From IMG/VR virus record IMGVR_UViG_2718218434_000004, positions 1-55,227 of that record: a DNA stretch of 55,227 bases; one strand, 5' to 3'. The stretch is from a virus. Its lineage: Duplodnaviria; Heunggongvirae; Uroviricota; Caudoviricetes. Of this stretch, positions 13,339 to 53,829 are shown piece after piece (position 1 is the first letter of the stretch; every line of letters starts with the position of its first letter). The notes beneath the pieces are model-generated. The model was not told the origin of the DNA, made no database searches, and worked only from the letters and a program-made list of their open reading frames with translations. Both the position numbers and the translations under genes were made by a program.

Positions 13339-13386
13339 AATGGTGCCGATAATAGGAGTCGAACCTACGACCTTCGCATTACGAAT
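13339..13386. repeat. att site: 48-bp direct repeat of the thrW 3' end (junction between element A and prophage B)
   Basis: Identical to 53782-53829; sequence diverges immediately outside both copies. Confidence 0.85.
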
Positions 13387-13779
13387 TATAAGAATCCACT
13401 TCTAATTCAAAGCATTACCCCATCAACACTGCGCTCACACGTCCCACCACATCAAAACATGTAAAGCCTTGCAAGCCATTGCGAGGCCTTATGTGTCTCA
13501 GTTTTGTCCCACCTTGTATTACGACTTGCATAGCCAATGAAGATAAACGTGACGACAAACGGCGCAGCAGTCTTCTTTTCCTTCATACTTTCCCCACCCA
13601 GCATGCATACCTTTATGCCATAACTGAAGTTTATGTCTGTTATGAGCGATGAGCGGAAGTTCACTACTTCATGACTAACATTGAAGTGTCCTAAGCAACG
13701 GGGAGCAGCTCAAGGAGTGTGTTAGTGCAATTACACTAACACAGCTACTAAAAATAAAAATACCAAAACTACAGTTATT

Positions 13780-15246
13780 CTATGCGCCTGGATTGGGTTC
13801 GATCATACTCAGCGTTTTTGCTATTTTCTTAATCTCATCATCATTATCCAAAAAAGAGGCGTCTTTTATTACCACAGTACGCTCTTCTTGTAATAGCTCA
13901 CCTATTTTTTCTTCTATAAAATCTAAGGTTGGCATTATAATCTGGATGTCTCGAGAAAAAGTAGTTTTTGCATCTTCTATACTGTTGAATCCATTATGTA
14001 TATGAGTGAATATTCTCTTTTTAAACTGTATGTCTTCTGGATTTCCCACTAACTGACTGAAATCTCCTTTCATAACTCTTTCGCTTGTTTCAAAGAGCTG
14101 TATTGCTATCGAGTCGATTAATTCCTTTTTGGACAGAGATGCTTGTTCATAAAATTTGGTGACTAACTCTGTTGGCAACTTTCTTGAGACGACTTTAATG
14201 GACAGTCTCTGAAATAGGTAAGGTGCCACCACGCCCACACTGAAAGGGTGAATCCTCCCTGGATTTAATAATTTTATTGTGACGTTTTCAAAAACTAGCT
14301 CATTGATTTTACTATTTATGAATTCCATTAAATACTTATCTAATGATAATGTTACCGACGCAACCGCTTCTATCACTTGTTTAAATGGCTCGCCTTTCAA
14401 GGATTTAAAAAACTCTTTGTTATAACCAAAGAAATCCACAAAACCTAAATTTATTCGATTTTCTTCTTTAGTATTTGAAATGCGAATTTGAAGTTGTTTT
14501 AAGTCTTCATCGGTCAAGTATTTTAAACCATAGTCATCAAGCGCGTTACGTATAACTTTATCTGCAGATTCTAAGTCGATTACAGTTTTTACATTAAAAA
14601 ACAATGATAACAATGAATCATACTTATGAACTCGCAAGGTTAAATCTGTTGCATTTGATGCGGTTACATTTATCCGTCTCAAAAGATCAATAACTTTACT
14701 AATTGGTAGGCTGTTTTCAAAAATTTTGAATGACTCGTATTCAGATACAACATCTTTTATATACTTACTGATAGTATCAGACTTTATTTCCACCTCAACT
14801 TCGGTTGAGTAAGAATGAATTAGTGAGTTTGTAGTTTCAGCGATGTCATTTGATACATACAACTTATATTCGAAACAATCAGGAGCGGGAAGCAAACTAT
14901 TATCAATAATGGAAAACAATAAAAATTTAATTATTTCTCTTAATGCTTGCGGTCTAGTTATTCTACCTTGCATTTTTTTACATTGTATTAAACCACTTAC
15001 AACACCGTTATGGTATAGCACGCAGTCGCGTCCTCTTTCAGAAACTCCTTGCATTAAAGATATTGAGGATATATTTTTATGCTTTCCATCTTCAATTTCG
15101 TTCTTTACTAACAAATAACATAGCAACTCAAATTCTCGATCACCTAATTCTGAAAAGGGAAGCAATCCGATACCAGAATCTATAGTCCATGGTCTATATC
15201 CTGATTGAGCCTCGATATTAATTTGTTCGTCACTGATTTTTTTCAC
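13780..15246 (-). CDS. Mrr-cat-like PD-(D/E)xK nuclease domain fused to a roughly 380-aa uncharacterised domain (candidate restriction/defence protein)
   Basis: AT-rich 488-aa ORF; N-terminal FELLCYLL...GVSERGRDCVLY...GLIQCKK matches the Mrr catalytic-core pattern. Confidence 0.6.
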   Translation of the reverse strand: MKKISDEQINIEAQSGYRPWTIDSGIGLLPFSELGDREFELLCYLLVKNEIEDGKHKNISSISLMQGVSERGRDCVLYHNGVVSGLIQCKKMQGRITRPQALREIIKFLLFSIIDNSLLPAPDCFEYKLYVSNDIAETTNSLIHSYSTEVEVEIKSDTISKYIKDVVSEYESFKIFENSLPISKVIDLLRRINVTASNATDLTLRVHKYDSLLSLFFNVKTVIDLESADKVIRNALDDYGLKYLTDEDLKQLQIRISNTKEENRINLGFVDFFGYNKEFFKSLKGEPFKQVIEAVASVTLSLDKYLMEFINSKINELVFENVTIKLLNPGRIHPFSVGVVAPYLFQRLSIKVVSRKLPTELVTKFYEQASLSKKELIDSIAIQLFETSERVMKGDFSQLVGNPEDIQFKKRIFTHIHNGFNSIEDAKTTFSRDIQIIMPTLDFIEEKIGELLQEERTVVIKDASFLDNDDEIKKIAKTLSMIEPNPGA

Positions 15247-15561
15247 TTAAATCTCCTTCTAATCTTATTGACCTACTCCCTACATTGTAACAGGGGATGA
15301 TGATAAGGTGTATCTTTCGAGCTATAAGCACGATAAATAAGTGATTAAAAATGACTCTTTAAACTATTTTAATTTAAAAAATTAATTGTTAGTTCTAATT
15401 ATGGTATGAGGGCATTTTCGGCATAGTTCTAACCATATACTTTGGTAAAAATGACTGTTACGGAACAGACCATAGTAATGCCTGCTATTGGCACGGAGCG
15501 GGCTGCCTGAGCGCCGTGGGGTCTGCAAACGGTAAGCATACCGATAACTATACGCTTGGCC

Positions 15562-15981
15562 TTAGTAACTTTTGCTCCCCTCAATAAATCCGCCATCTTT
15601 TATCGGACTGCAATGTCCTTCTTCATCAATCAGTTGCTCGTCTTTCAGGTAGGTATATCGATAGATAATTGAGCCATTATCCATCTCACCATTGGTTCGT
15701 TTCATTAGGAGAGTAAAATGTAACGGGCTGTCCCTATATCGAGCTATTCCATGAATATTGGCAAGTACCTCATATTGACGCTCAGGTGATAACCCTTTAA
15801 ATACATCGAGATATCCATGGAATGTTCCATAGAGTGAAGAAGTGTAGATCAGTCGCTGCTCTGGACCAGTAACTTTAAGAGTAATTTGTTCACCCGTATT
15901 ACAGGTTAGCTTGGCGGGAAATGTCTCAGCCTGAGCAGAAGAAATAGTCAAGCTTAAAATTATCAGGTAGCAATATTTCAT
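15562..15981 (-). CDS. secreted protein of unknown function
   Basis: Start at ATG 15981 (MKYCYLIILSLTISSAQA-ETF) gives a signal peptide; AT-rich, own intergenic regions. Confidence 0.5.
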   Translation of the reverse strand: MKYCYLIILSLTISSAQAETFPAKLTCNTGEQITLKVTGPEQRLIYTSSLYGTFHGYLDVFKGLSPERQYEVLANIHGIARYRDSPLHFTLLMKRTNGEMDNGSIIYRYTYLKDEQLIDEEGHCSPIKDGGFIEGSKSY

Positions 15982-16485
15982 GTGATTAGAATGTCCAAAA
16001 CTAACATGTATACTCGGGATTCTATAACTAGTTGGATGTAGACCCAAGATGTATTGGACTATTCTTCGGTTGTAGTTGGTCAAATCATATATTTTATGTC
16101 AGCAATGTCTACTTTTGGCACATAGCAGACCAGAGACACTGGCGTAAAGCCATGGAGGATCGGTGGGAGGAGGTAAAAATCCTCTCATGCAAAAAATACG
16201 CAAAATCGATAACAGTTGGAAATCATTCAATACTCGCACTATCGGAAGTTCACCAGCCAGTCGTAGCACGTTCTTGCATATGACGTGGCTACGGGTTTCG
16301 AGACCGACCCGATCATCAAACGAAACATAAAATTAGCTCACATTATGAGGAAAGGTATCTTTTTGCGCTATGTAAATTCAAAGGGTTAGCCTCATTTTCC
16401 CGATGGATTTCTCAACACTACTAGTTGTGAGCCCTTGCAATGTTCATTAATATACGTCTCACAAATAATTCATAGATATTGCAAA

Positions 16486-52074: not shown

Positions 52075-52379
52075 TGACCACTTTTACCGACAAAGAACTG
52101 ATTAAAGAAATTAAAGAGCGTATCAGCAGCCTTGACGTGCGAGACGATATTGAGCGCCGTGCTTATGAAATCGCACTCCTATCTCTGGAAGTAGAACCAG
52201 ATGAACGCGAAGCTTATGAATTATTCATGGAAAAGCGTTTCGCTGACTTAGTAGATCGTCGGAGAGCAAAAAACGGCGATAACGAATACATGGCATGGGA
52301 TATGACTCTCGGTTGGATCGTCTGGCAGCAACGAGCTGGTATCCATTTTTCAACAATGTCACAGCAAGAGGTGAAATAA
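52074..52379 (+). CDS. yfdT: YfdT-like hypothetical protein
   Basis: 101-aa ORF immediately upstream of xis. Confidence 0.4.
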   Translation: MTTFTDKELIKEIKERISSLDVRDDIERRAYEIALLSLEVEPDEREAYELFMEKRFADLVDRRRAKNGDNEYMAWDMTLGWIVWQQRAGIHFSTMSQQEVK

Positions 52380-52729
52380 TGGAGCCATACAGCCTCACAC
52401 TCGATGAGGCCTGTCATTTTCTCAAGATATCCAGACCGACTGCCATTAACTGGATACGCACAGGGCGTCTTCAGGCAACACGCAAAGATCCCACTAAGAA
52501 TAAATCTCCTTACCTCACAACACGACAAGCCTGCATTGCGGCGCTTCAGTCTCCGCTGCATACTGTCCAGGTGAGCGCGGGTGATGGCATAACAGAGGAA
52601 AGAAAATGTCACTCTTCCGCAGAGGTGAAATATGGTACGCCAGTTTCACATTGCCGAACGGTAAAAGATTTAAACAGTCTCTTGGAACAAAGGACAAAAG
52701 GCAGGCGACAGAACTCCATGACAAGCTAA
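52379..52729 (+). CDS. xis: excisionase (P22 Xis-like)
   Basis: Start at [37 protein letters not shown]; overlaps the integrase start. Confidence 0.7.
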
Positions 52730-53769
52730 AGGCTGAAGCATGGCGGGTCAGCAAACTTGGTGAAATACCTGATATAACGTTCGAGGAAGCGTGTGTCAGG
52801 TGGCTTGAAGAGAAAGCACATAAAAAATCACTGGACGATGACAAAAGCCGGATCGGATTCTGGCTTCAACATTTCGCAGGAATGCAACTAAGAGACATTA
52901 CTGAATCAAAAATTTATTCAGCAATGCAGAAAATGACGAACCGGCGTCATGAGGAAAACTGGAAACTCAGGGCAGAAGCATGCAGAAAAAAAGGGAAACC
53001 TGTTCCAGAATACACGCCAAAACCAGCGTCCGTTGCAACGAAGGCTACGCATCTTTCATTTATAAAGGCCCTACTAAGAGCCGCAGAGCGTGAATGGAAA
53101 ATGCTGGATAAGGCACCAATTATTAAAGTGCCTCAACCAAAGAATAAACGGATCCGCTGGCTGGAGCCCCATGAAGCACAAAGGCTGATTGATGAATGTC
53201 CGGAGCCATTAAAGTCTGTTGTTGAATTTGCACTGGCAACAGGCTTAAGACGCTCGAACATCATCAACCTTGAATGGCAACAAATAGATATGCAGCGCCG
53301 GGTGGCATGGATAAACCCGGAAGAGAGTAAATCAAACCGCGCAATTGGCGTTGCGCTGAATGATACTGCATGTCGCGTATTGAAAAAACAAATCGGGAAT
53401 CATCACCGTTGGGTATTTGTGTACAAGGAAAGCTGTACCAAACCAGACGGAACGAAAGCGCCAACAGTAAGGAAGATGCGGTATGACGCAAACACAGCCT
53501 GGAAAGCGGCGCTGAGACGGGCTGGTATTGATGATTTCAGATTTCACGACTTGAGACACACCTGGGCAAGTTGGCTGGTTCAAGCCGGAGTCCCGTTGTC
53601 AGTTTTACAGGAAATGGGAGGCTGGGAGTCTATCGAAATGGTTCGTCGATATGCTCACCTTGCACCTAATCACCTTACCGAACACGCACGGCAAATAGAC
53701 TCGATCCTGAACCCATCGGTCCCAAATTTGTCCCAGTCAAAAAATAAGGAAGGTACTAATGATGTGTAA
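52606..53769 (+). CDS. int: tyrosine integrase (P22-type, thrW-specific)
   Basis: 387 aa; [35 protein letters not shown]-terminus; C-terminal [10 protein letters not shown]...Y region; ends 15 bp from thrW. Confidence 0.9.
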
Positions 53770-53781
53770 CTTATTGATTTT

Positions 53782-53829
53782 AATGGTGCCGATAATAGGA
53801 GTCGAACCTACGACCTTCGCATTACGAAT
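53782..53829. repeat. att site: 48-bp thrW 3'-end repeat (tRNA-proximal copy)
   Basis: Identical to 13339-13386. Confidence 0.85.

Follow-up and report, generated by a model that had tools for sequence, protein, structure and literature searches.

How many mobile elements occupy the tRNA gene thrW in this stretch of DNA, which integrase brought each of them in, and in what order did they arrive? The stretch comes from a virus record of the Caudoviricetes (IMG/VR record IMGVR_UViG_2718218434_000004, positions 1 to 55,227) and was analysed at its full length of 55,227 nt, hereafter the window. At its right end lie thrW and the chromosomal gene proA; to their left follow a prophage, B, related to Shigella phage SfV, and then part of a P4-related island, A. 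We conclude with confidence that thrW carries a stacked array of two unrelated elements, each inserted by its own integrase, A most probably having come first. A first-pass annotation had placed two tandem elements at thrW within positions 13339-53829. Two independent elements are indeed present, but this span holds only B and its attachment (att) sites, while A lies at 1-13338 and continues beyond the left edge. The coordinates of all features are collected in Table 1.

Table 1 Features of the thrW array, in order of position in the window.
Feature	Position	Strand	Basis
Element A, P4-related island, incomplete in the window	1-13338	-	99.96% identity to A of E. coli CUVET17-1418
P22-type ejection-protein genes: gp16-like (2636-4741, 701 aa) and truncated gp20-like (4741-5481)	2636-5481	-	PHROG 770, 917
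Truncated primase, Zn-ribbon + Toprim	5508-6857	-	Pfam; DUF927 C-terminal half lost
Junction of 3,957-bp deletion, 2-bp microhomology (TA)	5526-5527	.	Comparison with the CUVET17-1418 copy
C4 antisense RNA (P1/P4-type immunity RNA)	9276-9363	-	Rfam RF01695, 79.9 bits
isrK RNA, just upstream of C4	9426-9503	-	Rfam RF01394, 67.8 bits
AlpA-family regulator, excisionase candidate of A	11330-11533	-	Pfam Phage_AlpA, E=7e-20
IntA, P4-type tyrosine integrase, 404 aa	11961-13175	-	42% identity to P4 Int, E=3e-116; Arm-DNA-bind_3, Phage_int_M, Phage_integrase
Tandem 11-bp repeats ATACCCCCATAAGTACCCCCAT, putative arm-type IntA sites	13207-13228	.	Analogy to annotated P4 attP arm repeats
19-bp core of A, AATGGTGCCGATAATAGGA, tRNA nt 60-76 + 2 bp	13339-13357	.	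Distal copy and A arm in 9 A-carrying loci
Internal hybrid att (attR of B + attL of A)	13339-13386	.	Repeat comparison; SfIV alignment
Prophage B, 40.4 kb, SfV/SfI/SfII/SfIV-like temperate myovirus	13387-53781	.	~97% nt identity; ORF lengths match SfIV
488-aa cargo protein	13780-15246	-	Low GC content (32.5% across 14001-15000)
PD-T4-3 (GIY-YIG) anti-phage defence gene in the attP-proximal cargo slot of B	16435-17259	+	PADLOC PDLC04031, E=2.7e-140; Pfam LEM-3_GIY-YIG; SfIV gene map
Pin-type serine invertase of the B tail-fibre switch	17320-17910	-	Pfam Resolvase + HTH_7
Xis-like HTH_17 ORF, overlapping the int start	52295-52729	+	Pfam; position as SfIV excisionase
IntB, P22-type tyrosine integrase, 387 aa	52606-53769	+	90% identity to P22 Int over 387 aa; Pfam Phage_integrase
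attL of B (48-bp copy inside/adjoining intact thrW; left flank is the int side of SfIV attP)	53782-53829	.	Repeat comparison; SfIV alignment
thrW, intact tRNA-Thr(CGT)	53784-53859	-	ARAGORN; Rfam tRNA, 71.8 bits
Segment matching the annotated attP core of P22, AGTCGAACCTACGACCTTCGCAT, tRNA nt 38-60	53800-53822	.	P22 record annotation (feature 21300-21322)
proA, chromosomal flank	53974-55227	-	Annotation of matched records

ARAGORN detected a single tRNA gene in the window, tRNA-Thr(CGT) thrW, and Rfam agreed. A 417-aa open reading frame (ORF), annotated as proA in matched records, lies 114 bp from it. The repeat search returned a 52-nt direct repeat with 98% identity (13335-13386 and 53778-53829), in which 13339-13386 equals 53782-53829 exactly over 48 bp. 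Realignment confirmed what the first-pass annotation had read there, namely the last 46 nt of thrW (tRNA nt 31-76) plus 2 downstream bp. Sub-patterns of the 48-bp repeat occurred twice in the window against 0.00 times in shuffled sequence. A third att copy had been put forward as an argument against the tandem arrangement; four sub-patterns with up to 3 mismatches, and the 1-nt-deleted form carried by relatives, gave no such copy in the window, and the 18-nt copy that relatives carry outside this range agrees with the tandem model and is no argument against it.

The 48-bp repeat delimits B only, and A uses a shorter core of 19 bp. For B, an alignment showed that the attP of SfIV is reassembled exactly from the left flank of the thrW-side site, the 48 bp and the sequence to the right of the internal site (from 13387); therefore both 48-bp copies are the attL and attR of an SfIV-type integration. 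IntB ends 13 bp before the thrW-side copy. Together with the HTH_17 ORF at the position of the SfIV excisionase, it bears out the earlier assignment of a P22-type int/xis pair beside the intact tRNA.

The late region of B shares ~97% nt identity with Shigella phages SfII, SfI, SfIV and SfV and with E. coli phage vB_EcoM-689R6. Matches at about this identity cover 54-73% of the late-region query and 73-92% of the early-region query, and SfIV covers 92% of the early region at 97.8% identity. The likeness to SfV, SfI, SfII and SfIV runs through head, tail, early and int-xis regions, with identical attP flanks and the same integration site. B has the features that define an SfV-like phage, that is, a 46-bp attP matching the 3' end of thrW with conserved flanks, P22-type Int/Xis, and the common morphogenesis and early gene set. 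Because its terminase, portal, protease, capsid, sheath, tube and baseplate ORFs equal those of SfIV in length, B looks complete, apparently with a full-length morphogenesis gene set. With P22 it shares the 90% identical integrase and the same 46-bp thrW att, but it is a myovirus and not a podovirus. A 46-bp attP is common to SfI, SfV and SfIV (PMC3851460), and SfV-type integration at thrW next to proA has already been published (PMC3851460; PMC3636060).

For A, the far end could be followed in 9 A-carrying loci, where the 18-nt sequence AATGGTGCGATAATAGGA is followed by a conserved arm. This sequence corresponds to the final 17 nt of thrW and 2 further bp, minus one C. In the relatives it lies 4.3 kb past the stop of the gp16-like gene, which corresponds to ~1.7 kb left of window position 1. 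At that point we would predict AATGGTGCGATAATAGGA, then ACAATACACATAGGCG, with the arm repeat ATACCCCCAAAAGTACCCCCAT ~60 bp further in. The A locus of E. coli CUVET17-1418 (L001) has exactly two copies of the 22-bp tandem repeat ATACCCCCAWAAGTACCCCCAT. One lies ~60 bp inward of the distal core; the other, ~115 bp inward of the proximal core, corresponds to 13207-13228 of the window. The annotated attP of P4 has tandem 12-mers on either side of a 20-bp core, and A shows the same design around its 19-bp core. Since thrW copies and arm repeats mark both ends of A in the manner of P4 attP, A reads as one discrete P4-Int-type unit bounded by the 19-bp core.

IntA starts 164 bp from the partial tRNA copy and is the P4-type integrase that had been reported beside it; by sequence comparison it is unrelated to IntB. 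The internal site joins the two elements, its right flank being the P' arm of an SfIV-type attP and its left flank the int-proximal arm of A. In CUVET17-1418, A stands alone beside an intact thrW and spans ~19 kb. Over the shared sequence the two copies of A are 99.96% identical, whereas the adjoining thrW-proA segment (53776-55227; L001 29290-30744) is only 95.3% identical, so A is mobile independently of the chromosome. The same segment is 99.9% identical in other genomes. A value of 95.3% is seemingly low for E. coli core DNA, and suggests distinct proA alleles or recombination beside the hotspot.

Islander, which defines tandem tDNA arrays and tDNA sublocations (PMC4383910), expects each island of an array to have its own integrase and its own tDNA fragment in the same orientation. 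Here the integrases are IntB and IntA; the direct 48-bp copy of B lies in the window, and the direct 18-nt copy of A is seen in the 9 related loci only. A close counterpart is the SfI-SfX tandem of Shigella flexneri, which sits at the same thrW next to proA and uses the same 46-bp P22/SfV-type att (PMC3306764). In that tandem and in Islander arrays (PMC4383910) the newcomer lies at the intact tRNA, a displaced tRNA fragment separates the elements and each element has its own integrase, as in the window. Where SfI-SfX has a second SfV-type phage as the older partner, the window has a P4-type island, the presumably older A, whose core sits at the 3' end of the tRNA; A and B should not cross-recombine because the core of A is different and shorter.

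The two elements apparently use different parts of the 3' half of thrW. The segment that corresponds to the annotated attP core of P22 is the likely crossover region of IntB; this core (nt 38-60) and the core of A (nt 60-76 plus 2 bp) overlap by one base, and the internal 48-bp site holds both. This agrees with what is known of integrase subfamilies, which split between anticodon-side and T-stem/3'-end sublocations of tDNA (PMC4383910; bioRxiv 10.1101/2020.11.02.365908). A would recombine within its 19-bp core at the T-loop/acceptor end of thrW, and B carries the classical 46-bp attP, whose annotated core lies between the T-loop and the anticodon stem. On this basis IntB/Xis would excise B alone through 53782-53829 and 13339-13386, and IntA with AlpA would excise A alone through the internal site and the distal 18-nt site outside the window. 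Joint excision of A and B would be disfavoured, as the outer pair of sites would offer neither integrase a matching core or arm set. We predict independent and not joint excision because IntB would be unable to use the distal 18-nt site and the outer pair would lack the int-proximal arm of A.

As to the order of arrival, the first-pass annotation had proposed that A integrated first and that B re-used the reconstituted thrW. We consider this order probable. A would have entered thrW and regenerated it, B would then have entered the regenerated gene, and its insertion would have shifted the 48-bp thrW fragment, with A behind it, to a position 40 kb from proA. With A resident, the sole P22-type core is that in the intact thrW, so B would land only next to proA. 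This history is the most parsimonious one, and it has a laboratory precedent, in which SfI entered thrW at the attL of an SfX prophage already resident there, and the newcomer came to lie next to proA (PMC3306764).

Several points weigh against this account. The order cannot be read from the structure, as insertion of A into the attR of B gives the same map, because the displaced 48-bp fragment contains the 19-bp core of A. The distal att of A, being outside the window, is placed from relatives, the crossover positions are drawn from the extent of the repeats and the annotation of the P22 record, and the excision behaviour is purely what we infer. In addition, the exact A/B junction with this B cargo was present at >=80% coverage in no complete E. 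coli genome of our collection, which offered no sister strain for an intermediate state.

We surveyed 5,426 complete E. coli genomes, requiring >=80% coverage of each junction query. The IntB-thrW-proA junction was present in 1,193 genomes, and 712 had an A-type integrase beside an intact thrW (100%-identical copies of A included). The order of the window, that is, A-type integrase, 48-bp site and SfV-like P' arm, occurred in 160, and the full reverse-order junction in 1. A rival to the proposed order is the reverse history, in which B came first at thrW and A then inserted into the displaced 48-bp fragment, the attR of B, and not into the intact gene. The whole 19-bp core of A is indeed available in that fragment, and A-type elements do arrive after P22-Int prophages. 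In strain CP131_Sichuan the order is thrW, an A variant, the 18-nt copy, and then P22-type int/xis and a lambdoid early region cut by IS1; beside the distal att of A in L001 and L003, too, there are short remnants of P22-type int. However, in cases of the CP131_Sichuan type A entered not the displaced fragment but the intact thrW, and came to lie proximal, and A-type integrases are frequent at intact thrW. The sole experimental precedent, SfI/SfX, likewise has the newcomer at the intact tRNA, or attL. A resident A leaves B one possible target, which makes the observed map deterministic, whereas the reverse history needs A to pick the fragment over the intact gene. We therefore regard it as unlikely and retain A followed by B.

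The chromosomal side of the distal att of A deserves a remark of its own. There we found the 3' end of a P22-type integrase gene plus attP flank (L001 10143-10301; L003 ~1960-2037; L007 19320-20484); the gene is full length in CP131_Sichuan and eroded elsewhere. Because these remnants flank the distal att of A, thrW had at least one P22-Int occupant earlier than A. The intF gene of K-12 was considered as a full-length version of the remnant and dropped, since the K-12 map has intF in a different arrangement.

Whether the neighbours also depend on each other is a separate matter, and the gene content of A bears on it. On the strand of IntA and downstream of it follow AlpA, an AntA antirepressor, an "Ash" ORF and a Zn-ribbon/Toprim primase. 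A has the marks of a P4-like element, namely a P4-type integrase, an AlpA-type regulator, an alpha-type primase (N-terminal domain only, truncated here) and a cI/C4 immunity RNA. Its primase N-terminal domain is 33% identical to P4 alpha, and like P4 it has tandem arm repeats flanking a core of ~20 bp that lies at a tRNA 3' end. A differs from P4 in its P22-type ejection genes, in a primase C-terminus of DUF927 type in place of the P4 helicase part, in the absence of recognisable sid, psu and delta, and in its target thrW. P4 integrates at leuX. Psu, Sid and Ogr/Delta had no match in Pfam or PHROGs among the 16 A ORFs of at least 61 aa, and the A ORFs left out of that scan are too short for them. 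Of the features of Gram-negative phage-inducible chromosomal islands, A has int, alpA and primase; no packaging or capsid gene was detected, and several of its small ORFs are unannotated.

The "Ash" ORF (355 aa, 8817-9884, minus strand) matches Pfam Phage_ASH at aa 124-232 and overlaps the C4 and isrK RNAs on the same strand. The protein match may at least partly be a translated conserved RNA immunity region. In its distal part A carries a second AlpA-family gene (957-1142, plus strand) and a PerC-family regulator (1-282, minus strand), which in relatives are followed by PRiA4_ORF3 just before the distal att.

The copy of A in the window is degraded. The full primase of relatives has 918 aa. 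The 3,957-bp deletion found by comparison with CUVET17-1418 takes away the DUF927 C-terminus of the primase, both the gp14-like and the gp7-like gene, and with them the N-terminal part of the gp20-like one. With half of its primase and most of the ejection module lost, A is probably replication-defective in this strain, as judged from its gene content. Relatives carry the full ejection set in P22 order, that is, DUF2824 (gp14-like), P22_gp7, Inj_translocase (gp20) and P22_gp16 (Pfam; L001 16741-19294, L008 7448-12106). The cargo thus follows the P22 gene order 14-7-20-16, but the gp16-like protein of A is only ~30% identical to gp16 of P22-like phages (~31-33% to Sf6 and L gp16); its closest phage homologue, in Escherichia phage N7, is 67% identical.

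Such genes might instead be what remains of one end of a third prophage, P22-like, that formerly stood in the array, and so no part of A. Their order and orientation match the end of the P22 late operon, and P22-type int remnants lie at the far side of A. The surrounding sequence speaks otherwise. The module is embedded in the conserved backbone of A, between the primase and a stretch with AlpA2-PerC-PRiA4_ORF3, P4-type arm repeat and 18-nt core, and this holds in every context of the exact gp16-like protein, which we found solely in A elements. No 46-bp P22-type attR follows the module. Variants of the A family hold other cargo at the same position, which points to a variable slot; strain 21EVA has only gp20- and gp16-like genes there, and CP131_Sichuan has SSB and other genes instead. 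A leftover prophage end is consequently very unlikely, and we treat the ejection genes as lying inside A.

The first-pass annotation had also raised a possible helper-satellite relation, in which A and B would form a functional pair and their adjacency would reflect it. A does have satellite-like traits (P4-type Int, AlpA, C4 RNA, alpha-like primase, AntA antirepressor), and the same pairing of an A-type integrase with an SfV-like P' arm recurs in 160 genomes. The virion types do not agree, however. The only virion-related genes of A are the P22-type ejection proteins gp14/7/20/16, which belong to short-tailed phages, while B is contractile-tailed with sheath, tube and tape measure and carries no ejection genes of this type, so that compatibility between podovirus-type ejection proteins and a myovirus was not found. 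Both A and B-type phages are also found on their own; sid, psu and delta are absent from A, Pfam and PHROGs found no packaging genes in it, and its primase is truncated here. The shared hotspot thrW suffices to explain the co-occurrence. We found no support for the proposed relation and give it next to no credence.

A doubtful but less remote reading is that A represents a lineage of P4-related satellites, not yet described, that exploits P22-like short-tailed phages instead of P2. In that case the lineage would have kept the P4-type Int, AlpA, C4 and primase and swapped sid/psu/delta for the ejection proteins gp14/7/20/16 in the variable slot, and A and B would stand in tandem only because they happen to use one hotspot. 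In the literature we found no description of a satellite with ejection-protein cargo or of a thrW satellite like A.

Prophage B differs from SfV, SfI, SfII and SfIV in its cargo. The gtrA-gtrB-gtr(type) O-antigen cassette is absent, and searches with Pfam, PHROG and PADLOC found no Gtr family in the attP-proximal slot (13387-17300). The slot encodes PD-T4-3, located where the Shigella phages carry gtrABC, and two proteins without known function, of 488 aa and 173 aa. For the 488-aa protein there was no match in Pfam (E up to 10), PHROG, PADLOC, NCBIfam or PDB sequences, and by eye its N-terminus may resemble a PD-(D/E)xK nuclease motif. Pfam (E up to 10), PHROGs, PADLOC and NCBIfam likewise gave nothing significant for the 173-aa protein (15562-16083), whose ORF has an internal signal-peptide-like stretch. 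Strain 21EVA holds a restriction endonuclease in the same slot, and the slot thus behaves like a defence hotspot. The cargo end of B also lies between thrW and a CP4-6-like island in strain CT02, and in >20 other genomes.

Further features of B lie away from the junctions. Next to the cargo slot, 17320-20104 comprises the Pin-type invertase and a 1.85-kb invertible tail-fibre segment with alternative fibre-tip/assembly ORFs on both strands; the inversion sites, two 20-nt repeats in inverted orientation, were located by the repeat search (17936-17955 and 19801-19820). The 313-aa replication-initiator-like gene (45630-46571) contains four 15-bp-spaced direct repeats (46199-46273; consensus about CAGATTTTGACGGGT), which look like origin iterons, by analogy with the lambda O gene. 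Two low-GC pockets, 25167-25697 and 38155-38718, have ~38-39% GC against ~55% in the surrounding late genes and contain one ORF each (176 aa and 187 aa). Neither ORF had a Pfam or PADLOC match, and they are probably morons in the tail and head/lysis regions.

The A-att-B order thus occurs in about 3% of complete E. coli genomes (160/5,426). Reviews list thrW as a top integration hotspot (PMC7545054), and Islander counts 125 tandem arrays (PMC4383910). The stacked layout described here is a known and frequent architecture, well resolved in this case. With the hotspot known, tandem occupancy already made experimentally and the architecture present in 160 genomes, it opens no new question in itself, and two side leads come with it, the P22-type ejection genes in a P4-like backbone and, in place of the gtr cassette of SfV-like phages, defence-type cargo with the 488-aa protein among it. 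Its practical value lies in exact boundaries for annotating the thrW locus. For the biology of the locus, it indicates that one tRNA gene can host two integrases on adjacent cores, and it gives a clean prediction, that A and B would excise independently of each other.

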